Source of the DNA: a virus | Lineage: Duplodnaviria; Caudoviricetes | Reading direction: 5' to 3' (one strand) | DNA: 64,000 bases | IMG/VR virus record: IMGVR_UViG_2617271113_000004 | Location: 96,001-160,000 of that record | In this document: positions 27,377 to 57,481 of the stretch, piece after piece | Position numbering within the stretch: position 1 is the first letter of the stretch | Layout of the letters: every line of letters starts with the position of its first letter | Notes under the pieces: model-generated | What the model saw: the letters and a program-made list of their open reading frames with translations, nothing else | What the model was told of the DNA's origin: nothing | Databases searched by the model: none | Made by a program: the position numbers and the translations under genes

Positions 27377-28220
27377 CGCCTACAAGCTCCTATGCTGTTA
27401 GTATAGCATATCTAAAGTAGTACGACCATTGTTCGTGTATGGAGTCCAACATTGCTAGTTCCTCTTAGGACTAACTAGGATGTTGGTCTTCTATATACGA
27501 ATGTTATCTTATATTGCAAGGATAATGTTCGGATATAGAAGAAATCCTTCGGATAGGTGTATCAGCATAGCAATGCTCCCCTCTCCTCCCTACCGTTGCA
27601 TAGCGACACTGCCTTCGGCACAGCAGACCACCTCCGCCCGCTCCTTCTATTTGCCAGTTAAGCTTGCTAGCGCCCACTCTCACAGCACGTTCACCGACTA
27701 CACTAGTAGTATGCGGGTTATGTTTCAGCACAGCTCACTTGTCCACTATTTGTCAGCCTGTCGGCTAGCTCATTGAGTTATAGCCCCCACTATAGCTCGC
27801 TCACGCTTTCCTATTGCCCACTAATGGGTAAACCCTCGGTAACTCTGCATTCTATCTGCACGGCTCTCATTTTGCCTCCTAGAGGGCGGGGTGGGAGCAT
27901 TGCCGAGGGAAAAGTGTGTGTGCAGATGTAGCAAGCGTACCGATATAGATAGCTCTGCCGAAGAAGAAAGCTCAGCGTAGCTCTGCTTATCTATAGTCTA
28001 CATACTGCAACTATAAGCTTATTAGCTAGCTCATCCTCTGCTGTATATTTCTGTTCATACCAACATAGTAAGCGTACTGTATCTTTTAGTAGCCTATCCT
28101 CTCTGCCCCCTATTTATGTGAGCATAACCCCCCATTGTATCCGATCTTTTCGTTTGCGCTACTTATAAAAGTGCAGAGCTTCCCCACGGCCGACAACTAC
28201 ATAAGAGCTGCGGTACTAGC
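27365..28220 (+). ncRNA. Large GC-rich structured non-coding element downstream of the RNA polymerase
   Basis: No credible ORF; many long stems with G-U pairs on the plus strand. Confidence 0.6.
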
Positions 28221-28560
28221 TTTCTTTATTGTTGGCTTTACTGTTTATTTTGTATGCTTATTGTAGTAGTATGACTGTATCAGTTAGCTTTACTTTTACT
28301 AAGTAAGACTTACTGTTTATTTGATGAACTCTTTCTTTTATCTTCAAAACCCCCTATATAGTATGTAGTGCCTTTCATAAGTAAGTAATGCTTAAGAAAA
28401 ACCCTCTCATATATTATTAACACCTGAAAAACCTTAGGAAATGCTACACTTCGATATAATTGTCACAAATTGTTCACATTATGTTCGTAATATATCGAGG
28501 TGAAAATGCGAACAAAGAGGTATCTTTATACTGACTTTATGTTATGATAGGTATTACATT

Positions 28561-28570
28561 GCCTGTCGGC
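28561..28570 (+). promoter_or_regulatory. GCCTRTCGGC motif (one of six co-oriented copies)
   Basis: Also at 27756, 34929, 35561, 52237 and 57436. Confidence 0.6.
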
Positions 28571-28607
28571 AAGTTAGGTAGATATCACGTAATAGGGGTG
28601 CAAGAAA

Positions 28608-28796
28608 ATGACAGAGAGAGATTTATTAAAGTTTCAGTACCGTCTGGGATACTACGAAGAATTACTACAGAAGAAGTATACTACCTTTGCTCATATAGAG
28701 AAGCTAGATCGTTTGGAAAGAAAGATAGATGAATGGTATTTTTATTCTACAGAGTTATATGAAGAACAAGAAGAACTACAGGAATGTGTAGGTTAA
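28608..28796 (+). CDS. Hypothetical protein
   Basis: 62 aa with AGGGGTG RBS. Confidence 0.6.
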   Translation: MTERDLLKFQYRLGYYEELLQKKYTTFAHIEKLDRLERKIDEWYFYSTELYEEQEELQECVG

Positions 28797-28857
28797 ACTT
28801 CTATAGAGGGAGGTATACTCTTCCCTCTCTGTTATCTTACTAAGGAGGAAGTATGTC

Positions 28858-29004
28858 ATGCATCTATTAGAGAAACTCGATCTAGCTATAAGTAATTGTG
28901 TTTCAGGAGAGTCTGTATCGGTGGAATTTACATATGATGAACTACAGACAATACGTAAGATGGTAGTACTGTCTGCTTATGAAGATAGATTATCTAATGA
29001 TTAA
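28858..29004 (+). CDS. Small hypothetical protein (48 aa, not in track)
   Basis: AAGGAGG RBS; MHLLEKLD...RLSND. Confidence 0.6.
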   Translation: MHLLEKLDLAISNCVSGESVSVEFTYDELQTIRKMVVLSAYEDRLSND

Positions 29005-29019
29005 TGGAGGTGAATGATA

Positions 29020-29187
29020 TTGTATAAGCTTACTACATATAAAGATGAGAAACTATTGCCTAATAAGCGTAGTTCATCTTATTCCCTATCTAATTATAAA
29101 GTATATGGTCTCCCCTCTCGCTATAGTTTTAGACCATTAAGAAGTGGTCCTGATTACATTTCTTCTAGTAAGTCATTTTATGTATAA
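29020..29187 (+). CDS. Small basic protein (55 aa, not in track)
   Basis: GGAGGTG RBS with TTG start. Confidence 0.5.
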   Translation: MYKLTTYKDEKLLPNKRSSSYSLSNYKVYGLPSRYSFRPLRSGPDYISSSKSFYV

Positions 29188-29375
29188 CGTCCCTTTTTAA
29201 TTGGGGGCGATTGGAAAATTATCTGAATTTTCCGTTACATTATCAGTTCCATATATCAATTCAGACGACCCACTTAGCCCTCCATTTATCTTCTTTAAGG
29301 CGGAGGAAGCAAAGTAGATTTATTAAGCTTATTCTTCTAGCTCTATTAAAAGAGTGAGCTTAGTTTTTTTAGGAG

Positions 29376-29783
29376 GTGACTTTCAATATCGGTAATGACT
29401 TTAGAGTAATTATTGCTGGCGGTAGAGATTTTAATAATTATGATGTGCTTTATCAATGTGCTAAGTGGGCTTTATTAAATTATATCCACTCAGATATTCC
29501 TATAACCATAGTAAGTGGAACAGCACGTGGTGCAGATTCATTAGGAGAGAGTTTTGCAAAAGATAACTCATTCTCTATACTCCCCATCCCTGCTGATTGG
29601 AAACGCTATGGGAAGAAAGCGGGTTATCTTCGTAATGCAGAAATGGCTAAACATGCTAATGCATTAATTGCGTTTTGGGATGGCCACTCACGTGGAACTA
29701 GACATATGATTGATCTTGCTTATAAACATAATCTTGAAGTCTTAATATTTGATTATCAAGGAAACTTAAATCGAGGTGATTGA
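29376..29783 (+). CDS. SLOG-family (YspA/DUF2493-like) protein
   Basis: IIAGGRDF, IVSGTARGAD, AG..RN.EM and FWDG.SRGT.HMI motifs. Confidence 0.88.
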   Translation: MTFNIGNDFRVIIAGGRDFNNYDVLYQCAKWALLNYIHSDIPITIVSGTARGADSLGESFAKDNSFSILPIPADWKRYGKKAGYLRNAEMAKHANALIAFWDGHSRGTRHMIDLAYKHNLEVLIFDYQGNLNRGD

Positions 29784-30057
29784 TATGTGCACCGAAGGTT
29801 ATGCATTCGTTAATAAATATGGAGAATATTTAACGCTTCATCATGTTTTGTATGAGAATATTGTTGTATGCTCTACTCCTACGTTAGAATCGGTTAATTT
29901 AATCCCTACGCTGCCCGAAGCAAAAAGAGCATATAATTTTATCGTAAACAACTTAGGATATTGGAACCTTATTACATTAGATGACAATGTTCCTGTAAGG
30001 ATAGTTAAAGTAACTAATCGCACAGTTATTCAAGACACTAATGTAGTTTTATATTAA
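29776..30057 (+). CDS. Hypothetical protein
   Basis: 93 aa, coupled to the upstream gene. Confidence 0.55.
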   Translation: MIDMCTEGYAFVNKYGEYLTLHHVLYENIVVCSTPTLESVNLIPTLPEAKRAYNFIVNNLGYWNLITLDDNVPVRIVKVTNRTVIQDTNVVLY

Positions 30058-30085
30058 TAGAACTTATATCGGAAGGATGATGTAA

Positions 30086-30181
30086 ATGAAAGTTAAATGC
30101 CCTTCATGTCATAAATCAGTTAAGCTTAGATCAAATGGTCATGCTGTCTGTAAATGTGGTGCTCACCATAAAGTTATCTAA
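30086..30181 (+). CDS. 31-aa zinc-ribbon peptide (not in track)
   Basis: MKVKCPSC...CKCG with AAGGATG RBS. Confidence 0.6.
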   Translation: MKVKCPSCHKSVKLRSNGHAVCKCGAHHKVI

Positions 30182-30198
30182 TAGGAGTGTGTTATTAA

Positions 30199-30345
30199 AT
30201 GGGATTTCTCATATTAATCATTGCCGGCATATTCACTGGCTTCGGATTCATTATTGGAATTGAATATTGGAAACGTAAGAGTATCTTAGGCTATCAGAAT
30301 GGTTATGAAGATGGTATAGAAGATGCTTTTAGATTTAAACAATAG
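30199..30345 (+). CDS. 48-aa membrane peptide (not in track)
   Basis: N-terminal TM helix, GY.NGYEDG tail, AGGAG RBS. Confidence 0.6.
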   Translation: MGFLILIIAGIFTGFGFIIGIEYWKRKSILGYQNGYEDGIEDAFRFKQ

Positions 30346-30352
30346 ATAGGAG

Positions 30353-31093
30353 TTGTATTATATGAAACGGATTTTAGCTATTAGCGACATACATGGATGT
30401 CTTGATGAATTAAATGCTATATTAGATCAAGTTAATTATTGTCCAGAAAAAGATCGTCTTGTTCTAGTTGGAGACTACGTAGATCGTGGGTTAAAAAGCA
30501 GGCAAGTGATTGAACGTGTAATGGACTTACAAGAGCATGGTGCTATTGTTCTTAGAGGAAATCATGACCAAATGTTTATTAACTGGTTGATTAAGCATAA
30601 CATTATAGATCAAGAACTGTATTTAAGTAATGGTGGTATTCACACAATAGAAAGTTATGTAGGTTATGATTTCTTTGAAGATGGAATCATCAATGATAAA
30701 TTACAGGAAGCAAAGCAAATTATATATACGCATTACAGAGATCACATTACATTCTTATACCACCTTCCCTATTATTATGAGATAAAAGACCATGTTTTTG
30801 TACATGCTGGTATTGATCCTCTACATGTGGATTGGAAATCAACTAGTTTAGAAGATATGCTTTGGATTCGTAAAGACTTTCTAGATCAGCCTCACTTACA
30901 TGACGTAACATTTGTTCATGGACACACACCTTGTTTTACAGCGCATGATAGCCATGACATATACTTTGATGATAAGAAGATTGGAATTGACGGAGCATGT
31001 GCGTATGGTGGTCAGTTAAATTGTCTTGAAATAAATGACAGCTCTTATGAAATGCATTACGTAAAAAGAAATGAAATACCCTCAAAACTTTAG
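30353..31093 (+). CDS. Ser/Thr protein phosphatase (calcineurin-like metallophosphoesterase)
   Basis: SDIHG, GDYVDRG, RGNHD, VHAG and HGHTP motifs. Confidence 0.92.
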   Translation: MYYMKRILAISDIHGCLDELNAILDQVNYCPEKDRLVLVGDYVDRGLKSRQVIERVMDLQEHGAIVLRGNHDQMFINWLIKHNIIDQELYLSNGGIHTIESYVGYDFFEDGIINDKLQEAKQIIYTHYRDHITFLYHLPYYYEIKDHVFVHAGIDPLHVDWKSTSLEDMLWIRKDFLDQPHLHDVTFVHGHTPCFTAHDSHDIYFDDKKIGIDGACAYGGQLNCLEINDSSYEMHYVKRNEIPSKL

Positions 31094-31137
31094 GGAGAAT
31101 ATTTATGAAATTTGCTGGGTAAAAGGAGATTTTTAAT

Positions 31138-31596
31138 ATGTCAAATGAAATACGTTTTTATTCTCGGAGTAAAAAATACTTTGAATTTAGTAATTTTAGC
31201 AATAATGGATTTACAATTCACAATGAATTTACAGGCAACTTATTTTATCCAACTGTAGAGCATTACTTTCAATCTCTTAAGTTTCTTGATCACTCATACT
31301 CTGAAAAAGTACGTACTGCCTCTACTCCAGGAGAAGCTAAAAGACTAGGTAAATCTCGTCAATATCCTATTCGTAATGATTGGGATGATACTCGTTTATA
31401 TGTAATGATGACGGCAGTTGAAGCTAAATTTTCACAAAACCCTGAGCTAGAGAAAATGTTAGTAGACACAGGCGATGCAGTACTTATTGAGGATTCTCCT
31501 TATGATTACTTTTGGGGAGCAGGAAAAAATAATACTGGTCAGAACATGCTCGGAAAATTATTAATGAATTATAGAGATAAACTGAATAGGTTATGA
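31138..31596 (+). CDS. NADAR-family (YbiA-like) protein
   Basis: FSNF, YPTVEHYFQ.LKF, AKFSQN, LIEDSPYD.FWG.G and N.LGKLLM motifs. Confidence 0.92.
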   Translation: MSNEIRFYSRSKKYFEFSNFSNNGFTIHNEFTGNLFYPTVEHYFQSLKFLDHSYSEKVRTASTPGEAKRLGKSRQYPIRNDWDDTRLYVMMTAVEAKFSQNPELEKMLVDTGDAVLIEDSPYDYFWGAGKNNTGQNMLGKLLMNYRDKLNRL

Positions 31597-31599
31597 GCT

Positions 31600-31893
31600 A
31601 TGAGTAGTATACGTATCAACAGTTCTGATCAATATTATAAAGGCATTTTGCTTAATTGCATTTCACGTCGCTCATATAAAATGAATAAAGCTAAACGTTT
31701 TACTATTAATCATACCAATCAAAATGTATGGATACCTAATAAGCATTTACTTAATGATGGAACTATAAAGTATGGTGAAAATATAGACTATGTATTTCGT
31801 AAGGCTCAAAGGCAATTAGAAATAGCTGGTTACACTGGACCAATAGTTGGTATTAAAAGAAGCACTTTAACAACACATGGGATTAATAAATAG
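31600..31893 (+). CDS. Hypothetical protein
   Basis: 97 aa ORF. Confidence 0.6.
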   Translation: MSSIRINSSDQYYKGILLNCISRRSYKMNKAKRFTINHTNQNVWIPNKHLLNDGTIKYGENIDYVFRKAQRQLEIAGYTGPIVGIKRSTLTTHGINK

Positions 31894-32032
31894 TTTAAAC
31901 GAACAGGAAGGATTTTTTTATGTGCTTAGTTTGTAGTGGAGTAATTAATTATTTATGATTACTACTCTAATTCAAGACTGAAATTGACGATAAATAATAA
32001 ACTATAAAACTTTCATAGGAGGGTTATCCTAC

Positions 32033-32497
32033 ATGATGTTCACATCGATTAGAGCAAAAATGTTTGTAAAAGATGAGTATCAACCACTTATTGATAGATT
32101 AATGAATAACTCTGAAATTATGCAATGGAGCCAGTTACATTCAACTCTTCCTTTTGTTCAGCAATATGCGAAAGTACCACGTTCTGGACATATTCCGTTT
32201 GGAGCTCTGACATATGCCCCTTCTGAATGGGGAGTGTATGATAAGACGCATGGATTTAATGTTCATGTCATGTATGAACCCTCCTTTGAGAGACTTACTG
32301 GATTATGGACATTCCAATGCAGTTTAAGAGATAAAGCTAATACAATCGATCAATTTATGGATTTAATTGTTAATAATATTGTTGATCAGATTATTCATTT
32401 GGAAACAAAGTATGAAGGTGATAATTATAGCAATATCTATAATTTTGTAAATAATTCCGTTCGTATCACACATCATAAGGCTATTGATCAGTTATGA
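32033..32497 (+). CDS. Hypothetical protein
   Basis: 154 aa with AGGAGGG RBS. Confidence 0.65.
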   Translation: MMFTSIRAKMFVKDEYQPLIDRLMNNSEIMQWSQLHSTLPFVQQYAKVPRSGHIPFGALTYAPSEWGVYDKTHGFNVHVMYEPSFERLTGLWTFQCSLRDKANTIDQFMDLIVNNIVDQIIHLETKYEGDNYSNIYNFVNNSVRITHHKAIDQL

Positions 32498-32669
32498 GAG
32501 GAGCTATGATATGTCCGATAATCGTGAGGCTGTTTTCTATGACTTATTAAATAAGTATGAAATACTTCTTGGTGCTCAAGGTTGGTCTGATCCAGAAATA
32601 CAGGCAGAACTGAACAAGTTGTCTGCTGATTTTAAGGCTAATTTGTCTATGAAGGATGATTCAACATGA
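32484..32669 (+). CDS. Hypothetical protein
   Basis: Small ORF; GAGGAG RBS precedes an internal ATG. Confidence 0.5.
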   Translation: MISYERSYDMSDNREAVFYDLLNKYEILLGAQGWSDPEIQAELNKLSADFKANLSMKDDST

Positions 32670-33142
32670 CCAATATTTCACCTATGAATGATCTTTTAAT
32701 CGGTCACCTGTATCACTCCCCTATTTGGAAAGAACTATTGGAAAATAAGAAAATTCATTTTGATTTTAGGCTTACACATATGTATGTTTATAAGCGCAGC
32801 AATCATAGCTTATATATAGCTGAATTCCATAATGCCTTTACATACTTCGGAGAATATACAAAAGAAACAATCCTGAAATTCCAACAAAGAGATCCGTTAG
32901 ATCACCTTCCTATCACCTATGAGGAGTTATGTCATAGTCATGGATTCTATAAATTAGCAGAAACAAATGATTATGCAGCATTCTCAAATGATAGCCTTAG
33001 TGACTATCCTTCGGATCTCTATATATTTGAGATAGTAGATGTCCGAGAATATAGATTTTATACCAAGGATATCTCCCCTACTTGCATCCAAGAATTTTTG
33101 GATTTTGATATCAATCTAAACAAACTATCTAATATTAAATAA
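32666..33142 (+). CDS. Hypothetical protein
   Basis: 158 aa, ATGA-coupled. Confidence 0.6.
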   Translation: MTNISPMNDLLIGHLYHSPIWKELLENKKIHFDFRLTHMYVYKRSNHSLYIAEFHNAFTYFGEYTKETILKFQQRDPLDHLPITYEELCHSHGFYKLAETNDYAAFSNDSLSDYPSDLYIFEIVDVREYRFYTKDISPTCIQEFLDFDINLNKLSNIK

Positions 33143-33155
33143 AAGGAGCTATACT

Positions 33156-33242
33156 ATGAAATGTGCTGTTTGTAGTAACTATCGTGAGATTCAGTTTGAA
33201 AATGAAAACATTACATGCCCTGTGTGTGAAGATTATGTATAG
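33156..33242 (+). CDS. 28-aa CxxC..CxxC zinc-ribbon peptide (not in track)
   Basis: MKCAVC...CPVCEDYV with AAGGAG RBS. Confidence 0.6.
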   Translation: MKCAVCSNYREIQFENENITCPVCEDYV

Positions 33243-33263
33243 GTAATTAAAGGAGGTATTCAT

Positions 33264-33737
33264 ATGCTACATGTAGTTCAAGGAGACCTATTAGAGAGTG
33301 ATTGTACGGTTATCGCACATCAGTGTAACTGCTTTAATACTATGGGAGCCGGTATAGCTAAACAAATTAAGAATAAATATCCCTTGGCCTATGTCATGGA
33401 TCAACAAGCCCCCTACTCACCTATGGATAGACTCGGTGAAGTAACTTTTGCTTTTTATGACTCCCCTCCCCTACTTATATTCAATCTCTATGGACAATAT
33501 TCTTATGGGAAAGGACGTCATACTGATTATAATGCTTTATCTAACTCTATAAGTAAGATGATGCGTACCATACAGTCTATGCCAGAGCATGTCAGACAGG
33601 AATTTCCTTTTGTAAAGGTCGGAGTCCCCTATGGTTTAGGCTCTGGTTTAGCTGGTGGATATTGGAATAAAGTAAAACTAATCCTTGATTATTACTCTGA
33701 AGAGTTCAAGATAGATATATTTGCTTATAAACTATAG
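33264..33737 (+). CDS. Macrodomain protein (DarG/TARG1-like clade)
   Basis: GDLL, IAHQCNC..MGAGIA, NLYGQ and PYGLGSGLAGG.W motifs. Confidence 0.9.
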   Translation: MLHVVQGDLLESDCTVIAHQCNCFNTMGAGIAKQIKNKYPLAYVMDQQAPYSPMDRLGEVTFAFYDSPPLLIFNLYGQYSYGKGRHTDYNALSNSISKMMRTIQSMPEHVRQEFPFVKVGVPYGLGSGLAGGYWNKVKLILDYYSEEFKIDIFAYKL

Positions 33738-33813
33738 TTTTATTTCATAATTTAATTATTTTTTAAGGAAATATTTTTATATTTATTACTTTTATATGGA
33801 AATAAAACAAAAT

Positions 33814-33849
33814 AAAAACAGTAAATTAGGAAATAATCTACTGTTTTTT
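33814..33849. terminator. Bidirectional terminator between convergent genes
   Basis: AAAAACAGTA..ATTA-GGAAA-TAAT..TACTGTTTTT. Confidence 0.65.
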
Positions 33850-33859
33850 AATGAAATCA

Positions 33860-34480
33860 TTATTTATTTTTAAATGGATTCTTTGAAAAGATCTTTTTGT
33901 AAGCTGGTAGATTCATATATTCGTGCATTAATTTTCTTGTCTCTCGCTGTTCTTCCATGAATTGATCCAGCTTCTTAATACGTCTTTCCTCAATATCATC
34001 TATAGTAGCTGCCATTTCTCTAGATACATTCTCTGATATTTCAGCTGATAATTCTTTCGAAATGTCATCGGTTGCTTTATGAATAATCTGTTGCATGAAG
34101 GATTGGAATTCGGGGTTCTCTAACATGTGTTGCATATCTATCTCAGATAGCTCCATCTTATGTTTAGGTACTTCTGGAACCTGACCCTTCTGACGACACT
34201 CCAGATCTTCATTTTCTAATATTACGTATGCAAGATCCGTTGTTGTTGTCTTTCTGCCATACCTACTTTTAGCATCTCGCATAAACTCAAAGATCTTTAA
34301 GTCAGACTCATAGAATATGCGTTCATCCCTATGATTTCGCTCTAAGTAGTGTACATGTAGCTCTTCAAGCTTATCTGACCAGCCTCTTAGCGTTGGAGCT
34401 GGTACTTCAATTCGTTTCGCAGCATCGCCCAGCGTGACAAATTCAACGTCCATGGCCATAGCATCACACACTCCTCTCAT
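33860..34480 (-). CDS. MerR-like HTH coiled-coil protein (RacA/TubY-like architecture)
   Basis: DAAKRIEVPAPTLRGW...R.F.ESDL, then coiled coil and basic/aromatic C-terminal tail. Confidence 0.75.
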   Translation of the reverse strand: MRGVCDAMAMDVEFVTLGDAAKRIEVPAPTLRGWSDKLEELHVHYLERNHRDERIFYESDLKIFEFMRDAKSRYGRKTTTTDLAYVILENEDLECRQKGQVPEVPKHKMELSEIDMQHMLENPEFQSFMQQIIHKATDDISKELSAEISENVSREMAATIDDIEERRIKKLDQFMEEQRETRKLMHEYMNLPAYKKIFSKNPFKNK

Positions 34481-34515
34481 ATAGCTCTATTAAAACACAT
34501 ACCGAGCTTATATGA

Positions 34516-34952
34516 AAGTCGTTCTACTTCATAATTCATAGATGATTAACATATAACTCATTGTTCACTATTGAACATACTTACAATTTATCTATCAGTT
34601 AATTCGCCTTATGTAATATCTAATAGCTCAAATCCTATTTAATAATTCGTTCTATGTAAGATGTCAACCTATGAATTATTCCATAGATTATGAAGTAGTT
34701 ACCTGATAGATCGAGCTATTTCATAACTAATAATTAATAGTCTATTCAATAGTTAGCTATATATCATATTTAATAACTCGAACTCTGAGATAATCTATTA
34801 ATAACCTATTCCCCAAGTCGTTCTATGTCATATTTAATAGAATGTAGTCTATGAGTGATATCGCTCTATCTCATAACTGATAGTTCATTGCCTATGAAGT
34901 TGGCTGCTCTATCTAATAACTAATAGATGCCTATCGGCTAGTTATGAGAAAA
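34516..34952. repeat. Degenerate repeat array, consensus about CTAYYTMATAAYTNATAG
   Basis: Copies at 34524, 34616, 34635, 34716, 34766, 34866 and 34909; inverted copies at 34682 and 34938. Confidence 0.7.
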
Positions 34953-34995
34953 CTATTTATAATCTCTTAAAAACAGAGTAGGGGAGGTCAATATT

Positions 34996-35496
34996 TTGAG
35001 TAAAACTGATTTTGATAAATTACGTATTGATATGTGGGTATCCGGAACTGCTGATAAAGAAGGAAATGGGGGTTATAGTGCTTTATTATATTCTCAAATT
35101 AACCAAACTCCATTTAAGAAAACAATAGGGGGGTACGCTACTGATACAACGATTACTCGTATGACATTAAAAGCAATTGTAGAAGGTTTAACTTGTATTA
35201 AATCTAAATCCTTTATTCATATCTATACGTCATTGCCACAGATATCAGTTGGTTTAAATAAAAATATGTATGTATGGGAGAGAAATGACTGGAGAAGAAA
35301 AGACGGTCAATTTCTAAAGCATGCTGATCTATGGCAGCAAGTCTTTGAATTACTAGATGAGAAATCATTAAGTTATAGAGTAAAACTTGAACGTCCATTT
35401 CCTAGTCAAGACAATCATCTTTATGTAATACACATGGCAAGTAAATATACCATGCAAGCTAAAAAGCATTTGCATGAAGTTGCTGTTTCATCTTAG
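34996..35496 (+). CDS. RNase HI-fold protein lacking catalytic carboxylates
   Basis: GGY...TT.TRM.L.A, W.RN.W and KHADLW match RNase HI, but the D/E/D positions are S/T/S. Confidence 0.8.
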   Translation: MSKTDFDKLRIDMWVSGTADKEGNGGYSALLYSQINQTPFKKTIGGYATDTTITRMTLKAIVEGLTCIKSKSFIHIYTSLPQISVGLNKNMYVWERNDWRRKDGQFLKHADLWQQVFELLDEKSLSYRVKLERPFPSQDNHLYVIHMASKYTMQAKKHLHEVAVSS

Positions 35497-35514
35497 TAAA
35501 GGAGTGAACCTGTT

Positions 35515-35862
35515 ATGGAATATTTGGAACATAGTAGACAGACATATTCAAAAAAGAAAAGCCTATCGGCTAGCTTTAGGGTAAATTTACTGATCTATGT
35601 CATAGCCATATTAGTTGTTCTTACATTTGCTTTATTAATACGTAATGTACTTCCAAGTGATTACAAAGTTGAATATATCGAATACACAATGTCTAAAGGT
35701 GACAATATTACACATGCCATTGAATCCATTAATCAGAAGTATGATGGTCCTTATGATATGAGAGATCTCATATATATGGTAGTGGAAAAGAACAATCTTG
35801 ATTCTCATAAGGTTTATCCAGGTAAAACATACCTTATTCCAAAATTATTAGCTTCTCACTGA
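35515..35862 (+). CDS. TM + LysM-like protein (YneA-like)
   Basis: TM helix followed by YTMSKGD...NNL...VYPG..YLIP. Confidence 0.7.
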   Translation: MEYLEHSRQTYSKKKSLSASFRVNLLIYVIAILVVLTFALLIRNVLPSDYKVEYIEYTMSKGDNITHAIESINQKYDGPYDMRDLIYMVVEKNNLDSHKVYPGKTYLIPKLLASH

Positions 35863-35878
35863 TAGGGGAGAGTCTATA

Positions 35879-35989
35879 ATGAAAAATGATAAGAACCATC
35901 CGTGGGATGATATTCCTTTAATAAAAGTTCTCTCTGGACTTTTCATATGTGGAGTAATATTTGGAGTGTTAATGATACCGTTCTTATAA
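35879..35989 (+). CDS. 36-aa membrane peptide (not in track)
   Basis: AGGGGAG RBS and hydrophobic C-terminus. Confidence 0.55.
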   Translation: MKNDKNHPWDDIPLIKVLSGLFICGVIFGVLMIPFL

Positions 35990-36133
35990 TTGCTAGTTGT
36001 AAATAGGATTATCTGTTGATGATCCTATGAAGGAGCTCGCAACTCCATTTCTCATAGTAATGATTTCTTCTTTGTGATGACTCAGTTAGAGTCTTTTTTA
36101 TTAGAAAAATTTATATACAGAAAGGTGATAGCT

Positions 36134-36373
36134 ATGTCTATAGTTTTTAATTCGAAACAGGAACTTACTAATCATCTAGAAAAATTTACATTAGAAGAAC
36201 AGAAAACAGAGCTAGAATTTATGATTTCTAAAATTGAAGAAGAGGTAGAAATAGCTTTAATCCAAAACAACAATGAATTAGCAATATGGAAAATGTCAAT
36301 CGAGCTTCTTATTGAAGACGTGTTGAAGGAAGTAGAAAATAAATTAATCATTAACTACTCGTTGAATGTATGA
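36134..36373 (+). CDS. Hypothetical protein
   Basis: Start moved to the ATG after the AAAGGTG RBS. Confidence 0.6.
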   Translation: MSIVFNSKQELTNHLEKFTLEEQKTELEFMISKIEEEVEIALIQNNNELAIWKMSIELLIEDVLKEVENKLIINYSLNV

Positions 36374-36489
36374 TCTATGCAACATTATTTATTCTTATAT
36401 GTATGTCAGGGAAATTAATTTTTTTGCCATTCCTTTTAATATTGCATGCGTTAGAAGGATGGTTTAATAAGAGAAAGGGGAGCTAAATT

Positions 36490-36711
36490 ATGTCTAGAAC
36501 TGTTCAAACAACCTGTAACAACTGTGGTACGGAAATTACATTGGATTTTGGAAATGCAACTTATGAAGAAGCTTTAGTCCTTATAGATAAAATGGATAAG
36601 TCTAATCGTGAATGCCCTGGTTGGCATGTAGAAATTGGTGGTTGGAAAAAGCGATGGAACTTAGATGCAGCCGTTAAAAGTGCTTATGCTAATGAAGAGA
36701 GAGGTAAATAA
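36490..36711 (+). CDS. Hypothetical zinc-binding protein
   Basis: CNNC..CPGWH with strong RBS. Confidence 0.6.
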   Translation: MSRTVQTTCNNCGTEITLDFGNATYEEALVLIDKMDKSNRECPGWHVEIGGWKKRWNLDAAVKSAYANEERGK

Positions 36712-36731
36712 TTTAAATTAAAAATCAGGAG

Positions 36732-37649: not shown

Positions 37650-37801
37650 AAAATCTAATTACAGAGGGTTTCAGCGCTCTCTGTAATGCTTTTCATGATA
37701 ACCTTTAAAATAATCCTCATTTTTTCTTCATTTTTTGATTGTTTTCTATAATTATCTGTTATACTATTGTTATACATAAGTAAAATGAAGGGAGAAATCC
37801 T

Positions 37802-39655: not shown

Positions 39656-39712
39656 AGGGGAGACAGTATATACTGTTTCCCTATATAAACTTATCATAGG
39701 GGAGAAAATAAC

Positions 39713-40357: not shown

Positions 40358-40472
40358 TGCACTACATTTGGGGGAACATATAGAATATCTTTATGAAGAA
40401 GATGACTACAGTACACTATATGATCTTACTAATGGTAAGATTGTGGCTGTAAAGTAAAATTTATAGGAAGTA

Positions 40473-48621: not shown

Positions 48622-49578
48622 TTGAAAGTAAAACTGTTTACTCATACTGATTTGGATGGAGTTAGCTGCGCCTTACTAGCAAAACTTACTTTTGAAGCTA
48701 TTGATATTGTTTATTGTGATTATCATGATGTAGATGATTCTATACAAGACTTTATCCTATCGGATAATTTACTGCAATTTGATCGAGTTTTCATTACAGA
48801 TATTAATGTTAATGAAGCAACAGCAGAGATGATCGAGGCTTTAGATCTATCGAATAAATTTCAATTATTGGATCATCATTCCTCTGCAGACTGGCTTAAT
48901 AAATATGAGTGGGCATTAGTTAACGAATACTATAGTGATATAACTCAAACTTGTGGAACATCTATGTTATATGACTATATTCATAATTCTAATGATTTGT
49001 TTTATCAGCTACTTGCTTCTTGTAATCAAAAGATCATTGAACAGTACATTGAACTTGTGCGAAGATATGATACATGGGAATGGCAAACTATCTTTAACGA
49101 TTATGAAGCTAAATCACTAAATGATTTATTTTATATCTATGGCAGAGATCGATTTATAAGTAAATTCATGGATAAATTAAGGTTAACGAATGTCTTTGAT
49201 TTTAGTGATAATGAGAAAATGATCCTGGATCTGGAACAAGATAAAATACAAAATTACATTAATAAAATGGAAGATACTATAGCTCCTTTTCCTATCGGAA
49301 AATTCAAAGGAGGATTCCTCTTTGCTGAACAATATATTTCTGAGTTAGGAAATGCATTACACCAGAGAAATCCATTTTATGACTTTATTGCAATTATTAA
49401 TTTGCCTAGTAGAAAAGTGAGTTATCGAACGATCCATAATCACATTGATTTAGGGAAAGATATTGCATCACATTTTGGAGGAGGAGGTAGAGCTAAGACT
49501 GCTGGCAGTGAACTGAGTGACTCAATTATGACTCGTTTAATGGAAGCTATCTTACAAACTTCTGATTCAACTAATTAA
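48622..49578 (+). CDS. DHH-family phosphoesterase / oligoribonuclease-like
   Basis: HTDLDG, ITD, LDHH, SYRT and GGGG..TAG motifs. Confidence 0.9.
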   Translation: MKVKLFTHTDLDGVSCALLAKLTFEAIDIVYCDYHDVDDSIQDFILSDNLLQFDRVFITDINVNEATAEMIEALDLSNKFQLLDHHSSADWLNKYEWALVNEYYSDITQTCGTSMLYDYIHNSNDLFYQLLASCNQKIIEQYIELVRRYDTWEWQTIFNDYEAKSLNDLFYIYGRDRFISKFMDKLRLTNVFDFSDNEKMILDLEQDKIQNYINKMEDTIAPFPIGKFKGGFLFAEQYISELGNALHQRNPFYDFIAIINLPSRKVSYRTIHNHIDLGKDIASHFGGGGRAKTAGSELSDSIMTRLMEAILQTSDSTN

Positions 49579-52233: not shown

Positions 52234-52295
52234 ACCGCCTGTCGGCTTATTTAGTAGAAATTATAAAAAATGAAAATTCGAGAGGAGAATGAATA

Positions 52296-53015
52296 ATGAA
52301 CAACAATTTTAACGGTGGTTTTAACCCTGGACAACAACAAGGATTCCCTCCACAACCTAACGGGAACTTCAATCCTAATCAAAACATGAACGGAGGAAAT
52401 CAAGGAGGTAATTCTGGATCAAATTCCAATAAGCCTTCATATAATAAATTTGTTGTTTTAGCAAATTTAACAAAAGATCCTGAAGGTAAAACAGTGAATA
52501 ATAGCAAAGTTGCTTCATCAAGCATCGCAGTTAATCATCCAAACAATCAAACTGATTTCTGGGATATTGAAGTATGGGTAAATCAAGGAAATAGTTCCGG
52601 TACACATGATTTCCTATTAGATTATTGTAAGAAAGGTCGTCAGCTGCTAATTGAAGGAGAACCTTACCTCAAACGTCGTAAAAGACAAATAAACGGTCAA
52701 GATGTATTAGATCAAAACGGAAAAGGTGTTTATGATTACTATCCAACAATTAAAGTAACTAATCTTACTGGACTTGCTGGTGGTCAGTCAAATAATAATA
52801 ACAATAGTAATCAAGGTAATCAGCAACAAGGGCAGCAGAACAATTTTAATCAACAAGCACCACAGCCAAATGGTGGTTTTAATCCACAGCAACAGCAAGG
52901 AGGATTTGCTCCACAAGGGAACTTTGGTGCCCCACAAGGTGCTCCAGGAATGCAACAAGGGGCTCCAAACGGACAAGGTTTTGGTCCTCCAAGTGGACAA
53001 TTCATTCAAAGATAG
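52296..53015 (+). CDS. ssb: Single-stranded DNA-binding protein with N/Q/G/P-rich termini
   Basis: NK..VL.NLTKDPE, IAVN, TDF..I.VW and KG..L.IEG motifs. Confidence 0.85.
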   Translation: MNNNFNGGFNPGQQQGFPPQPNGNFNPNQNMNGGNQGGNSGSNSNKPSYNKFVVLANLTKDPEGKTVNNSKVASSSIAVNHPNNQTDFWDIEVWVNQGNSSGTHDFLLDYCKKGRQLLIEGEPYLKRRKRQINGQDVLDQNGKGVYDYYPTIKVTNLTGLAGGQSNNNNNSNQGNQQQGQQNNFNQQAPQPNGGFNPQQQQGGFAPQGNFGAPQGAPGMQQGAPNGQGFGPPSGQFIQR

Positions 53016-53023
53016 GATGATTA

Positions 53024-54477: not shown

Positions 54478-54497
54478 TGATGAGGGAGTGAATAGAT

Positions 54498-55121: not shown

Positions 55122-55290
55122 GTTATCACAAGTAGCAAAAATGTTAAATGTTCATAGAGACACTATTTTGTATTGGGAAGAAAATAAAATGATTCCTAAA
55201 CCTAGAAGAAATCCAAAAAATAATTATAGAACTTATAATGAAAAAGAGATAAAATTAATTAGTGACATTCGAGGAGTTAAAATAAGTTAA
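55108..55290 (+). CDS. MerR-type HTH protein
   Basis: QVAKMLNVHRDTILYWE...PRR..NNYR.Y. Confidence 0.85.
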   Translation: MKEYKLSQVAKMLNVHRDTILYWEENKMIPKPRRNPKNNYRTYNEKEIKLISDIRGVKIS

Positions 55291-55380
55291 AATTCAAATG
55301 ATCTCACGTAAGTTTAAGGCCTCTCCGTATGAATGACTCATTTGAAATTTGATATCCTTTTAACCTCTATATGAAATGCT

Positions 55381-55410
55381 TTTACAAATGTAAAGATGTA
55401 ATGTATTATA
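55381..55410 (+). promoter_or_regulatory. sigmaA-type promoter overlapped by an operator variant
   Basis: TTTACA-N17-TATTAT; TGTAATGTATTATA at 55397-55410. Confidence 0.6.
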
Positions 55411-55460
55411 AAACAAGATATGAGGTATTGTAATGTCATCATATAGAAAGGGGTATTTAT

Positions 55461-56021
55461 ATGGCTGAAAAAGAGGCTTTTTTAAAGAATCTAAGTAAGA
55501 GTGAATTAAAGGTTCACGATTATATTAAGGAAAAATCTGCTCAATCTGATGGACGCTTTCAACAATCTATGAGTAAAATTGGAGACGCCTTAGGGATTAG
55601 TGAAGCTACTGTACATCGTGCGGTTAGACGCTTAAAAAAAGATGGCATTATCGGTATTATTCCTTCTCAAGAAAAGGCAGAGTCTAATCATATTGTTTAC
55701 TATGGTGTCCCAGATGAAGAGGAGCAAGTAAATACCATCATTTCAATGGCTAGTGATCTTTCAAGCAGTATTAATCGTTTTCAAACTTTAATGGAAGTCA
55801 AAGATCAAACGATTCGTACAATGGAAAAAGAGCGTGACAGATTAATTAAACAAGTAGAAGAGCAGCAGACAGAATTAGAAAATTACAAACAAGTTGCTGA
55901 AAAGATGACACAAATTGTTGCCTCTTACGAAAAAGGTATGCCTGTTTTTAGTGACTCTAAAATCATTGGCTATACCGAACTTGATGACGGAAGTAGTGCT
56001 TTAATTTTCAAGGAAAAATAA
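55461..56021 (+). CDS. Winged-HTH + coiled-coil regulator
   Basis: IGDALGISEATVHRAVRRLKKDGII. Confidence 0.8.
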   Translation: MAEKEAFLKNLSKSELKVHDYIKEKSAQSDGRFQQSMSKIGDALGISEATVHRAVRRLKKDGIIGIIPSQEKAESNHIVYYGVPDEEEQVNTIISMASDLSSSINRFQTLMEVKDQTIRTMEKERDRLIKQVEEQQTELENYKQVAEKMTQIVASYEKGMPVFSDSKIIGYTELDDGSSALIFKEK

Positions 56022-56027
56022 GAAAGG

Positions 56028-56285
56028 TTGTGTCTTTTAAATATGCAACTGATTGATTCAATAAATTTAAACGAGAAAGCAGAAACGATTGCAGACCAGG
56101 TTTTTTTCATGATATCAAATATGGAATATCACTCTTCAAAGAATGATATTCCTGAGTTTCTGGATCACCTTAAAGAAGAATTAAGAGAAGACCCTCTTCT
56201 TTATCCAATGATATTAACAAGTCTTGAGCGCATTTTTCAAGATAAATTAAACCAGTTGTGTGATAAAGCAATAAAACACTCGTAA
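56028..56285 (+). CDS. Hypothetical protein
   Basis: 85 aa ORF. Confidence 0.55.
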   Translation: MCLLNMQLIDSINLNEKAETIADQVFFMISNMEYHSSKNDIPEFLDHLKEELREDPLLYPMILTSLERIFQDKLNQLCDKAIKHS

Positions 56286-56319
56286 TGAGTCTAAATTGAT
56301 TTTTCAGGGGGTGTATTGA

Positions 56320-56802
56320 ATGGTATTACACAGATTGCTTTTAGAAGACATCAATGAATGGGAAAGAATATGCGAGAAACTCAATGAACAAAACAATAAC
56401 CTTAAAGTTCCCTTAGAAAACAATACCACTACTCTACATCAATTTAATATGGATTTAAGTGATTTATTCACCGAGGTTAATTACTACTTTGGTAAAGCAA
56501 GAAGAAATAAAGATGCTATTTCAAGAATAATTGAGAATGTGCTAAAGGATCTATATAAAGGTCAAAATGATTTAGCAAGAAAGGCAGCTGGAATTCAACT
56601 AGCACAAAGATATCCTGTTCCAGATACAGCAAAACCTTATTACCCGGAGGATTTTGTGAATTTATTTGAACTTGAAGACCAAATAAATGCTTATTACTAT
56701 GCATTAGATGCTGCCTTAAAATCTTTAAATCATAAGGCGAGTGCTAAAATCACCAATAACTCAATACTTAATATTGAAAGGTCATTACTCCCAAGTAGTT
56801 AA
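56320..56802 (+). CDS. Hypothetical helical protein
   Basis: 160 aa with GGGGG RBS. Confidence 0.6.
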   Translation: MVLHRLLLEDINEWERICEKLNEQNNNLKVPLENNTTTLHQFNMDLSDLFTEVNYYFGKARRNKDAISRIIENVLKDLYKGQNDLARKAAGIQLAQRYPVPDTAKPYYPEDFVNLFELEDQINAYYYALDAALKSLNHKASAKITNNSILNIERSLLPSS

Positions 56803-56814
56803 AGGAGTTACATT

Positions 56815-57348
56815 ATGAGTGAATGTAGGTTTATAACCGAATGTGCAAATGCGAATAAATCTTGCTATAAATGCTTTGATTATAATATGTATAGTTCAAA
56901 AAAAGAAAGAGTACCTCTACGTGCAAGGTCTCTCACAAATAAACAGAAGAAAAGTGGGATTGACTTTGAAAATAGAGGAACTAAACAATATAATTCTGCA
57001 ATTAAGCAATCAAAAGATGCAGCTCGTAGACAAATTGCATCTGGTGCTTTGCATTTTGCACTAGGAGATATGATAACTGAAGAAGATCTAACTGCATCTT
57101 TAGCGGAATTCAAAGAAAGGGGATCTAAAGATGCTAAGGGATCCAAACAGATTACCATCAAAAAAGAGTGGCTTGATGGTATTAAAGAAGAAGCCCACAA
57201 TATGGGGAAAGATTATTATTATCTTCCTTTTAGTTTTAAAGGAAGTGATACGGATTATGTTGCAATGGAGTATGAAATGTTACTTTCTTATGTACAAACT
57301 ATCCAAATGCTTGTTGAGCAAAATAAGATTCTTCAAGAAAGGGGATAG
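56815..57348 (+). CDS. Holliday-junction-resolvase-like PD-(D/E)xK nuclease
   Basis: G.DFE.R, R..ASGA, GD, EFK and ITIKKEWL motifs. Confidence 0.75.
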   Translation: MSECRFITECANANKSCYKCFDYNMYSSKKERVPLRARSLTNKQKKSGIDFENRGTKQYNSAIKQSKDAARRQIASGALHFALGDMITEEDLTASLAEFKERGSKDAKGSKQITIKKEWLDGIKEEAHNMGKDYYYLPFSFKGSDTDYVAMEYEMLLSYVQTIQMLVEQNKILQERG

Positions 57349-57481
57349 AACTGTCATGAAATCGAAAGGTACGCAAAGACGAATAACAGCCATAAGAAAA
57401 CGAAAAGGTTTATCACACACTAAAACAAGTTAAAAGCCTGTCGGCTTGTTTATTGATGTATAAATAAGGGGGATTGAGAAA

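Follow-up and report, generated by a model that had tools for sequence, protein, structure and literature searches.

The motif GCCTRTCGGC, which recurs on one strand of the 64,000-nt window analyzed here (positions 96001 to 160000 of the 191,052-bp record G000), is the invariant core of a larger element comprising a stem, a loop, and a downstream box at a fixed distance. Covariation of its flanks supports the 10-mer being a hairpin under selection, and sequence comparisons support the element traveling with a gene for an RdRP/YonO-type RNA polymerase, with altered letters in Bacillus phage 0305phi8-36. We place at roughly 55% the probability that the element is a promoter of the phage's own polymerase, which would use a template-strand mini-hairpin as in phage N4, the N4 enzyme being unrelated.

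The features of the window discussed below are as follows.

23870 to 27376, + strand: gene for a single-chain RNA polymerase of the RdRP/YonO/QDE-1 two-barrel kind, 1168 aa
27377 to 28558, + strand: ORF-poor, GC-richer stretch past the polymerase gene, with CCTTCGG hairpins upstream of site 1
27754 to 27779, + strand: site 1, a-GCC TGTC GGC-t, 4-bp stem, PWM score 15.8, the first site past the polymerase gene
28559 to 28584, + strand: site 2, tt-GCC TGTC GGC-aa, 5-bp stem, PWM score 25.2, before ATG 28608
33860 to 34480, − strand: gene with a MerR-like HTH, divergent, upstream of site 3 (Pfam MerR_1, E = 0.0013, under the family cutoff)
34927 to 34952, + strand: site 3, 3-bp stem, before TTG 34996
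34996 to 35496, + strand: RNase H gene (Pfam RNase_H, E = 6.5e-8; phrog_531, E = 4.7e-14)
35559 to 35584, + strand: site 4, a-GCC TATC GGC-t, PWM score 23.5
49288 to 49313, + strand: candidate variant site, tt-TCC TATC GGA-aa, PWM score 18.8, seventh in G000
52235 to 52260, + strand: site 5, 3-bp stem, PWM score 27.5, before ATG 52296
52296 to 53015, + strand: gene for a single-strand DNA-binding protein (Pfam SSB, E = 3.2e-8; phrog_44, E = 2.6e-12)
57434 to 57459, + strand: site 6, aa-GCC TGTC GGC-tt, 5-bp stem, before ATG 57482

An exact motif scan of the window places GCCTGTCGGC at 27756, 28561, 52237, and 57436 and GCCTATCGGC at 34929 and 35561, and all six copies lie on the + strand, which is that of the polymerase gene, as an earlier note on this DNA had described. 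The expectation for the window is 0.01 copies, and none of 100 dinucleotide shuffles reaches six, which bears out the note's estimate of far less than one by chance. Across the whole of G000, the motif occurs seven times forward and never in reverse; the seventh copy, at G000 168973 and thus beyond the window, is followed by TTTTT. The other, 118-kb arm contains no copy, in line with the note's finding none in the structural half. The polymerase matches Pfam PF05183 (RdRP) with an E value of 1.7e-8 and 34.1 bits, against a cutoff of 23.8. Three of its four aligned homologs match the same family (best E value, 4.6e-13), and all four share an invariant GGAD-DGD stretch. It only weakly matches the YonO homolog from an SPbeta-like phage, with 22% identity across 23% of the protein and an E value of 4e-6.

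The whole element measures about 26 to 28 nt. Its full stem has 5 bp, of which the three inner ones are fixed as G-S-C, whereas the two outer ones may take any letters that complement each other. The 4-nt loop is fixed and reads TRTC on the coding strand and GAYA on the template strand, which confirms the GCC-GAYA-GGC that the note had given for the latter. The downstream box is AGTTnnGTAGA in G000 and CATTCATnnTGA in the GC-rich relatives. The stem-loop core thus stands as the note drew it, but the true element is longer and its fixed downstream box had been missed. Scanning six sources with the 10-mer core only gave 38 matches, 31 of which lie on the polymerase strand; by eye, the box follows 30 of these 31 and none of the 7 on the opposite strand. 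When PWM scoring was done leaving each genome out, with a matrix from the other genomes, the 8 best matches in G000 and the 15 best in G251 were all on the polymerase strand. Site alignments and orthologous spacers contain no conserved sequence upstream of the hairpin.

Pairing of the flanks was assessed at 30 sites picked by the core alone, with 20,000 permutations. Watson-Crick pairing occurs at the first flanking position in 21 of 30 sites (permutation mean, 7.8; no permutation as high) and at the second in 17 (mean, 9.0; P = 0.001), and all four pair types are seen at both positions; from the third flanking pair outward, there is no excess of pairing. Within the core, stem pair 2/9 is swapped from C-G to G-C in four sites. 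Paired cells amount to 86.7%, compared with 70.6 ± 2.5% in shuffles, and the covariation score is 0.354, compared with 0.089 when shuffled and at most 0.114 in slid controls; neither value is reached in 500 shuffles. In the window, the flank compensation claimed by the note is present at four of the six sites (a/t at 27756 and 35561, tt/aa at 28561, and aa/tt at 57436), with 34929 and 52237 lacking flank pairing. The variable pairs include two G-T versus two A-C in the 30-site set and no wobble among 54 in 0305phi8-36, a scarcity that fits DNA slightly better than RNA. In predicted single-stranded DNA folds, the bottom-strand hairpin is more stable than the top-strand one by 0.1 to 0.5 kcal/mol at all six window sites (−3.4 versus −2.9 kcal/mol at site 1). 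These energies reach only −2.1 to −4.4 kcal/mol and two of the six stems have just 3 bp, so that extrusion from the duplex unaided by a protein is unlikely. Three variant sites in relatives (CGCTATCGCT) have the full box with a stem of only 2 bp, which suggests that sequence may outweigh shape.

All relatives that were sampled sufficiently and have a Pfam RdRP/YonO-type polymerase carry the element on the strand of that gene, at polymerase identities of 69% down to 34%. In G001 (69% identity), all six copies are on that strand, and the host genome contains these 6 copies on the 195-kb phage contig versus 3 in the remaining 4.6 Mb. The same hairpin, on the same strand, is found in L027 (54 to 55% identity) and in G251, G250, and G249 (34 to 36%). 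A Sigma70_r2 match is present in G000 only and in none of four relatives, 0305phi8-36 among them; with the sigma factor thus confined to G000, no competing reader appears to be conserved alongside the motif. A palindromic operator-like motif, GTAATGCATTAC, also occurs in these phages.

The position of the element relative to genes is constrained. A ribosome site and start codon lie 28 to 76 nt (median, 39) downstream of the 10-mer in 23 of 29 sites (79%), a placement that random positions in the same arm reach in 12 to 18% of cases. Sites 2, 3, 5, and 6 lie 37, 57, 49, and 36 nt before their start codons, where the note gave 37 to 58 nt. The genes headed by the element include those for RNase H, SSB, and primase, which are replication genes; the 229-aa protein encoded at 57482 to 58171, which the note had called Gam-like, matches no Pfam or PHROG family, and that name finds no support. 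In some sites, the gap from stem to ribosome site is just 11 to 13 nt. Spacing from the preceding stop codon ranges between 2 and 784 nt, and in 5 of 13 G000 and G001 sites the motif begins 2 to 13 nt past that codon (3 nt at site 5). By the distance rule, no start codon follows sites 27756 and 35561: no ORF lies behind site 1, and site 4 falls 46 nt within a predicted 115-aa ORF (35515 to 35862), with no ribosome site and start codon in the next 200 nt. The variant at 49288, which has a T-A pair in place of G-C at stem positions 1/10 and lies within ORF 48622 to 49578, is possibly a genuine site.

Footprinting of four orthologous G000/G001 spacers shows the motif conserved, together with the few bases that follow it, in DNA that has otherwise diverged and is rich in indels. 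Sites 2 and 5 have retained orthologs in G001, the former although the surrounding spacer has diverged, and at site 3 conservation is almost confined to the motif and the bases following it. One of the four spacers comes after a divergent gene. The divergent MerR-like gene before site 3, an arrangement that recurs in G001, implies that the RNase H operon needs a start signal of its own, and the 150 nt upstream of each of the four sites between 22000 and 41000 contain no sigma-70-like consensus.

Site 1 sits in the 1.2-kb ORF-poor stretch, and the sequence after it is ORF-free and partly conserved. A noncoding transcript downstream of site 1 is possible: the predicted RNA fold of 27770 to 28210 has a z score of −2.06 for the + strand against −0.44 for the − strand, and the stretch has no Rfam match. 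The C-GAA-G hairpins that the note regarded as related are indeed present, as CCTTCGG at 27544, 27610, and 33006, but they belong to another class that lacks the downstream box. The copy at 33006 falls within a coding ORF, five records (G000, G251, G250, G249, and G248) have CCTTCGG between the polymerase stop codon and the first site, and these hairpins look like cUUCGg RNA hairpins.

A scan of the 0305phi8-36 genome revealed the same architecture, in which the loop and three inner pairs are fixed, the outer pairs covary, and a box follows; the polymerase of this phage is about 21 to 27% identical in aligned segments. In this phage, CGTTCGCACG occurs 19 times (18 unique), always on the strand of the polymerase gene, and Watson-Crick pairing is seen at the flanking positions in 18, 18, and 16 of 18 sites. 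The letters differ (CGT-TCGC-ACG with box TnTTnTGTA, against GCC-TRTC-GGC with AGTTnnGTAGA here) and the stems are longer, at 6 to 8 bp, whereas the template loops, GCGA and GAYA, both begin with G and end with A. Both phages have two arms, about 200 kb of DNA, and a Pfam05183 polymerase opening the replication arm. Hardies, Thomas & Serwer (2007, PMC2147016) described 14 phage-specific 21-bp promoter candidates in 0305phi8-36, co-oriented in noncoding spaces of the replication arm, and proposed them as middle promoters and targets of gp99; the main text of that paper does not use hairpin, inverted repeat, palindrome, or dyad for these motifs. The 18 unique sites probably correspond to the 14 published candidates.

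Several known systems offer partial parallels. T7-type promoters are phage-specific signals of about 20 to 25 nt that are repeated before operons, co-oriented, and run into the start; their recognition takes place on duplex DNA, and no stem-loop is under selection. The present element resembles them as a repeated, co-oriented, pre-operon signal and differs in its selected stem-loop. The early promoters P1 to P3 of N4, used by the virion RNA polymerase, are described in PMC4496689 and PMC13492108. Their stems mix conserved bases with variable ones that need only pair, and the template-strand loop requires a 5' G, a 3' A, and a closing G:C pair (PMC4496689). The element shares with them a small template-strand hairpin upstream of a (here putative) start, a conserved inner stem with variable bases needing only complementarity, a template loop with 5' G, 3' A, and C-G closure, a conserved stretch extending to the start site, and an SSB gene in the system. 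The N4 enzyme, however, is T7-like, right-hand, and virion injected, whereas this one is of the two-barrel RdRP/YonO type; N4 has 3-nt loops, stems of 5 to 7 bp, and three sites at one genome end, against 4-nt loops, stems of 3 to 5 bp, and 7 to 16 sites across 45 to 65 kb of replication genes. For the SPbeta promoter P(yonO), Forrest et al. (2017, PMC5467207) left the promoter sequence undetermined. The polymerases belong to one broad fold family, with about 22% identity over a quarter of the length, and the SPbeta start lies downstream of the polymerase gene before an unannotated noncoding RNA, as site 1 here precedes ORF-free sequence. SPbeta, however, has one start and one late (structural) operon, in contrast to many sites and replication genes. 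The late promoters of the AR9 nonvirion RNA polymerase (PMC9209446) are likewise read on the template strand by a phage two-barrel enzyme, but that enzyme is multisubunit with a dedicated promoter-specificity subunit and recognizes a short linear uracil-containing motif with no hairpin.

The main rival, which we consider unlikely but deserving of weight, is an RNA-level element in transcripts from promoters farther upstream. It could act in processing or stabilization, as an operator of translation, or as an antitermination signal of the nut/put type present in every 5' leader. Stem covariation is equally expected of a leader RNA hairpin, as is placement 28 to 76 nt before start codons; T7 RNase III sites lie just after upstream stop codons, as do 5 of the 13 G000/G001 sites, and the conserved single-stranded box could serve cleavage or binding. 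However, it is the template-strand loops that have the form G-N-N-A, whereas the sense loops, URUC and UCGC, are to our knowledge not among the stable RNA tetraloops. The near absence of G-U in variable pairs, the lack of conservation upstream of the hairpin, and the short stem-to-ribosome-site spacing at some sites also argue against it, as does the ortholog pair 34929/G001 121798, which follows a divergent gene with no upstream + strand sigma-70-like match.

A duplex-DNA site for a phage regulator that activates or represses the RNA polymerase of the host seems improbable; in G000, such a regulator might work together with the phage sigma factor. GCC-N4-GGC is partially palindromic, the sites are intergenic and ahead of operons, G000 encodes a Sigma70_r2 protein, and the true palindromic operator-like GTAATGCATTAC suggests that regulator sites are common in these phages. 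Yet a dimeric duplex reader would not select outer pairs that vary while staying complementary, the center and box are asymmetric with a strictly one-way orientation, the two-block −35/−10 layout is absent, and the four relatives missing the sigma factor retain the motif. Still weaker is the case for a replication signal in single-stranded DNA, such as an ssi site or one for priming, or for a mobile hairpin of the REP kind: the hairpins are small and share one orientation within the replication-gene arm, and the AT-clade box has a GTAG-like tetranucleotide of the sort found beside REP elements, but the linkage to gene starts, the 118-kb arm without sites, the retained orthologous positions, and the lack of a detectable Y1 transposase/RAYT in G000 all speak against it. 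Intrinsic terminators of upstream operons are the least credible, despite several sites directly past stop codons and the T run behind the seventh copy, given stems of only 3 to 5 bp, no T run in five of six window sites, no terminator-like match at the four sites between 22000 and 41000, and a conserved box and fixed ribosome-site distance that serve no role in termination.

From the selected hairpin, its co-orientation, the constrained distance, the replication genes, and the co-occurrence with the polymerase, we infer that the element acts as a promoter, that its hairpin forms in DNA, and that the phage polymerase reads it; the note's hairpin-promoter interpretation is thus supported in part, apart from the kinship with CCTTCGG hairpins. 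Several points weigh against the promoter reading. Any conserved phage protein would co-vary equally with the motif, G000 encodes a sigma factor of its own, YonO of SPbeta drives late genes from a single start as reported in PMC5467207, site 35561 is intra-ORF, and it and 27756 have no start codon behind them. If the element is a polymerase promoter, opening of the duplex would let the template strand fold into a C-(G-A-Y-A)-G mini-hairpin, whose loop and inner stem would be recognized by the polymerase, either by itself or assisted by another protein such as the phage SSB, and initiation would occur in the conserved single-stranded box, probably about 8 to 14 nt past the stem. The "middle" operons for replication and recombination in the right arm, including those of RNase H, SSB, and primase, would then be transcribed from these sites, and site 1 would drive the noncoding stretch just past the polymerase gene.

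The decamer GCCTRTCGGC occurs six times in the window, all on the plus strand and at the six positions where the earlier note had placed it; 0.01 copies are expected, and none of 100 dinucleotide shuffles contains six. The complete record (G000), which is 191,052 bp long and is classed as a provirus, carries seven copies, all forward and within 123.7-169 kb, and the uniform orientation noted earlier therefore holds for six of six copies in the window and seven of seven in the record. G000 consists of two arms: the first, of about 118 kb, has its genes on the minus strand, and the second, from about 118 to 185 kb, on the plus strand. The latter begins with a few small genes and the gene for an 1168-aa RNA polymerase, also encodes a helicase and a primase, and contains all seven copies downstream of the polymerase gene.

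Window 23870-27376, plus strand: RNA polymerase gene
Window 27756, plus strand: hairpin site, 4-bp stem
Window 28561, plus strand: hairpin site, 5-bp stem
Window 34929, plus strand: hairpin site, 3-bp stem
Window 35561, plus strand: hairpin site, 4-bp stem
Window 52237, plus strand: hairpin site, 3-bp stem
Window 57436, plus strand: hairpin site, 5-bp stem
G000 168973, plus strand: seventh copy, 33 nt ahead of the DNA primase gene

The window polymerase matches the Pfam RdRP family (PF05183) above the cutoff, as do three of the four aligned homologs, and its GGAD-DGD stretch is invariant. Its similarity to the YonO homolog of an SPbeta-like phage is weak, with 22% identity over 23% of the length, and a sequence search of the PDB with the polymerase profile gave no match to a solved structure. 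The PF05183-type enzyme is the sole polymerase found in G000; a search of the record with PF00940 (T7-like polymerase) gave no match, and the control likewise matched in no genome. A family-level search found the polymerase in 1 of 246 genomes, which is the host assembly containing G001, and the annotated phage collection yielded no close relatives by megablast or by tblastn with the G251 polymerase. The following records and contigs carry homologous polymerases.

G001: IMG/VR record, polymerase 69% identical; also present as a 194,705-bp contig of an assembly labelled Oceanobacillus profundus
L027: 4-kb metagenome contig, polymerase 54-55% identical
G251: 228,841 bp, 50% GC, polymerase 34-37% identical to that of the window
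G250: 197,400 bp with direct terminal repeats, polymerase 34-37% identical to that of the window
G249: 70-kb fragment, polymerase 34-37% identical to that of the window
G248: 36-kb fragment, polymerase 34-37% identical to that of the window

The two ends of G251 (about 1-17 kb and 211.8-228.8 kb) are identical at an offset of 211,771 bp, which indicates a circularly permuted or terminally redundant assembly of about 212 kb. G001 carries six copies of the decamer, all on the polymerase strand, and the other 4.6 Mb of its host genome contains just three more. No core copy is present in the G248 fragment, which reaches only 1.4 kb past the polymerase gene.

All sources were scanned with the core alone (G-S-C, TRTY, G-S-C, with positions 2 and 9 complementary), which gave 38 matches. 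Thirty-one are on the polymerase strand, and 30 of these are followed by a recognizable downstream box; the seven matches on the other strand lack the box, two of them being one sequence in the terminal duplication. The consensus is nn-GCC-TRTC-GGC-(t)AGTT-nn-GTAGA in G000, G001, and L027, and nn-G[C/G]C-TRTC-G[G/C]C-nn-(C)ATTC(A)T-nn-TGA in the GC-rich phages. On this comparison of sequences, the element extends beyond the decamer and is common to the relatives. With a weight matrix built from the other genomes only, polymerase-strand sites rank highest in every genome, taking the first 8 places in G000 and the first 15 in G251. The matrix also finds the variants TCCTATCGGA (window 49290) and TGCTATCGCA (G251), in which pair 1/10 is T-A for G-C and the flanks are complementary, the loop variants TTTC and TAAC, and three copies of CGCTATCGCT, which keep the box with just a 2-bp stem. 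In IMG/VR, GCCTRTCGGCNNCATTC occurs in at least 119 stretches. Nearly all of the 80 loci examined are single matches without the remainder of the box or flank pairing, close to the number that chance would produce in that much DNA (about 80 by a rough estimate), and among these loci the full pattern is present in known relatives only.

Because the 30 sites were picked by the core alone, their flanks are open to an independent test. The row at G251 104190 (GGCTATTGCC), which has no box by eye, was removed before the covariation count; with it, the counts below would be 21 of 31 and 17 of 31. The first flanking pair is Watson-Crick in 21 of 30 sites (permutation mean, 7.8; none of 20,000 permutations as high; P < 5e-5) and the second in 17 of 30 (permutation mean, 9.0; P = 0.001), with all four pair types present at both positions, which bears out the compensating changes in the stem reported in the earlier note. 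Pairs beyond the second show no pairing signal in these sites, nor do the flanks of the eight other core matches. Within the core, the C-G at pair 2/9 is replaced by G-C in four sites. In the ungapped 30-site alignment, 86.7% of cells are paired versus 70.6 ± 2.5% in shuffled alignments, and the covariation score is 0.354 versus 0.089; none of 500 shuffles is as high in either measure, and slid controls reach at most 0.114. As judged from these substitution patterns, the element is a selected hairpin. As single-stranded DNA, the window hairpins have predicted energies of -2.1 to -4.4 kcal/mol, and the bottom (template) strand is 0.1-0.5 kcal/mol more stable than the top strand at all six window sites. 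The template strand reads C-GAYA-G in 29 of 30 sites, as had been proposed, the exception being the GAATA-type loop of L027 (TATT on the top strand); a sheared G:A pair would be expected in the template-strand loop.

The sites are positioned with respect to genes. A Shine-Dalgarno-like sequence and an ORF start (ORFs of at least 35 codons) lie 28-76 nt downstream (median, 39 nt) of 23 of the 29 genomic sites, versus 12-18% of random positions in the same arms, and the upstream stop codon lies 2-784 nt from the site. The genes headed by window sites encode a 62-aa ORF product, RNase H, SSB, and a 229-aa protein without a family match; the label "Gam-like," which the earlier note gave to a gene behind one site, found no support. 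In four orthologous spacers of G000 and G001, one of which follows a divergent MerR-like gene in both genomes, the surrounding sequence is diverged and indel-rich, and the hairpin with the few bases after it stands out as conserved. Just upstream of the second window site, a 92-nt block (CACAAATTGTTCAC...GTATTACAT; window 28470-28560 and g1rc 111811-111902 of G001) is 75% identical and is the sole nucleotide similarity between G000 and G001 in the 1.2-kb stretch after the polymerase gene.

The remaining six genomic sites have no start codon behind them; in G000, G251, G250, and G249, one of these is the first site to follow the polymerase gene. In G000, no ORF follows this site in window 27766-28210. 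G251, G249, and G248 share the blocks AACCTGGGGTAACTCnGCA, GGGnGTGGCTGCAGGTTC, and AAACCTGGnGAnAAAATTTCCAGTTG in the corresponding stretch, with a weaker echo near window 27826-27845, and this stretch is a candidate noncoding RNA of no known family; Rfam gave no match in window 27200-28800 or in the G251 counterpart. The DNA from the polymerase stop codon to the first site is noncoding, C-rich, and G-poor and carries CCTTCGG (cUUCGg-type) hairpins; such a stretch is common to five records (G000, G251, G250, G249, and G248).

Window 27377-27755: CCTTCGG stretch, with hairpins at 27544 and 27610; acccttcgggtt in the relatives
L040:3261-3560 (G251), L057:589-875 (G249), and L061:1-420 (G248): counterparts of window 27766-28210

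The earlier note had related the CCTTCGG hairpins to the decamer. They lack the box, and one of them is inside an ORF; their membership in the class of the decamer hairpins is not supported. The CCTTCGG stretch after the polymerase gene may form a folded 3' terminus of the polymerase mRNA.

A loop-sequence scan of G000, G001, G251, and G250 revealed no second overrepresented hairpin besides the perfect palindrome GTAATGCATTAC (often TGTAATGCATTACA), which has 10-14 copies per genome spread over both arms, most of them immediately ahead of ribosome sites. Examples in the window are listed here, and others are present in G001, G251, and G250.

Window 20387-20398 (G000 116387): GTAATGCATTAC palindrome
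Window 21939-21950 (G000 117939): GTAATGCATTAC palindrome
Window 50641: GTAATGCATTAC palindrome
Window 59004: GTAATGCATTAC palindrome
Window 18733-18807, minus strand: tRNA-Pro (TGG)
Window 19611-19685, minus strand: tRNA-Asn (GTT)

The palindrome is retained even in the 50%-GC relatives and probably acts as operator for a conserved dimeric regulator, much as a repeated element does for the repressor of SPbeta. The two phage tRNA genes lie at the inner end of the structural arm and are the only Rfam matches in the window.

A similar arrangement is present in Bacillus phage 0305phi8-36, whose gp99 was assigned to Pfam05183 by Hardies, Thomas, and Serwer (PMC2147016). In their account, the right arm has 14 "phage-specific promoter candidates" that resemble one another over 21 bp and that were proposed to be middle promoters targeted by gp99; the main text of that paper does not use the terms hairpin, inverted repeat, palindrome, or dyad for these candidates (PMC2147016). 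The window motif is essentially absent from 0305phi8-36, in which GSCTRTYGSC has two loose matches only. Its genome instead contains 19 copies (18 unique) of CGTTCGCACG, every one on the polymerase strand, and the motif consists of nnCGTTCGCACGnn plus a TnTTnTGTA box that follows the hairpin and reaches the ribosome site. The three flanking pairs are Watson-Crick in 18 of 18, 18 of 18, and 16 of 18 unique sites, with all pair types present. Although the letters of the motif differ, in both phages it is repeated, is co-oriented with the genes, and occupies noncoding spaces of the replication arm, at the head of which the Pfam05183 polymerase is encoded. A fixed tetraloop, three fixed inner pairs, free outer pairs that remain paired, and a box indicate that the two share one design, and the template-strand loops, GAYA in G000 and GCGA in 0305phi8-36, both start with G and end with A. 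By this likeness, the G000 signal is probably a second sequence dialect of the 0305phi8-36 promoter candidates.

The anatomy of stem and loop also matches that of the early promoters of phage N4, as the earlier note had proposed. The N4 hairpin combines conserved bases with variable bases whose sole need is to stay paired, the 5' G, the 3' A, and the closing G:C pair are required for its extrusion and stability, conservation continues to +1, and host SSB is needed (PMC4496689, PMC13492108). Similarly, in the G000-type sites the inner stem bases are conserved, the outer bases are merely complementary, and the template-strand loop has a 5' G, a 3' A, and a C-G closing pair. The loop is 4 nt and the window stems are 3-5 bp, whereas N4 has a 3-nt loop and a 5- to 7-bp stem. 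N4-type promoters are read by a T7-like single-subunit virion polymerase, their start sites lie at a fixed distance from the loop, and hairpin extrusion depends on supercoiling and SSB. Because the G000 polymerase belongs to a different fold family, the likeness to N4 is functional and not one of membership. The YonO promoter was still to be determined in Forrest et al. 2017 (PMC5467207). In sequence, the G000 layout, with a candidate noncoding RNA behind the first site, resembles that of SPbeta P(yonO), which starts after the polymerase gene and ahead of a noncoding RNA. No copy of the G000 motif was seen in the SPbeta-like yonN-yonK spacer. In the SPbeta-like phage BUCT082, the expected region of the published YonO start site is a 1.7-kb ORF-poor spacer from the HU gene to yonK (L063:7243-8962) that is rich in UUCG-type hairpins; an Rfam match within it to DUF3800-VIII RNA (8632-8697) is unrelated to the hairpin signal.

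The reading favoured by these comparisons is that hairpin and box form a promoter of the phage polymerase. Among transcription components, only the polymerase gene was found in every carrier, there is no conservation upstream of the hairpin, the motif dialect shifts with polymerase divergence, and the gap from stem to ribosome site can shrink to 11-13 nt. The main rival is a signal in the leader RNA for processing, stabilization, or antitermination, which would likewise conserve pairing in a hairpin ahead of genes. The comparison leans slightly toward a hairpin in DNA rather than in RNA, since wobble pairs are scarce (two G-T and two A-C here and 0 of 54 in 0305phi8-36) and the template-strand loops are of the G-N-N-A type, whereas the sense loops, URUC and UCGC, are not known as stable RNA loops.

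A sigma-dependent promoter, read by a phage or host sigma factor, would be expected to have a two-block -35/-10 motif. G000 does encode a Sigma70_r2 protein (262-aa frame) in the structural arm outside the window (G000:10949-11119, minus strand), but this protein is absent from all four motif-keeping relatives (G001, G250, G251, and 0305phi8-36) and the consensus lacks the two-block layout; the 150 nt upstream of each of the four sites inside 22000-41000 contain no sigma-70-like consensus. The lesser rivals are a duplex operator, a terminator, and a replication or REP-like signal. An intrinsic terminator would have a GC-rich stem of at least 5 bp ahead of a T run, but T runs are lacking and the four sites in 22000-41000 are not among the terminator-like matches. 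REP elements would have copies in both orientations, but the copies here are uniformly oriented, and the Y1 transposase of REP/RAYT systems (PF01797) is absent from G000, the control having matched in six genomes.

A literature search found no promoter definition for a YonO/QDE-1-type phage polymerase beyond the 2007 candidates. What is new here is comparative evidence that the signal is a hairpin, which would work as the N4 promoters do. More tentatively, at a probability of roughly 0.4, template-strand G-N-N-A mini-hairpins with a start box may be the general promoter type of single-chain two-barrel (YonO/QDE-1-type) phage polymerases. The 26- to 28-nt signal is concrete and testable, with stem swaps, loop variants, and the 0305phi8-36 dialect as a ready-made mutational series, and it would give Bacillus-type hosts an orthogonal polymerase/promoter pair. 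Should the leader-RNA explanation be right, the sites would make up a new family of signals in leader RNA. Reading of the hairpin in DNA would mean that promoter recognition by structure has evolved twice, in unrelated polymerase folds. The general proposal, if true, would answer the YonO promoter question open since 2017 and would reveal a second, independent invention of a structure-read promoter, so far known only from the unrelated T7-like N4 polymerase; it would also suggest that initiation on folded single-stranded DNA is an ancient trait of this polymerase lineage, to which the eukaryotic RNAi enzymes, acting on single-stranded templates, also belong.
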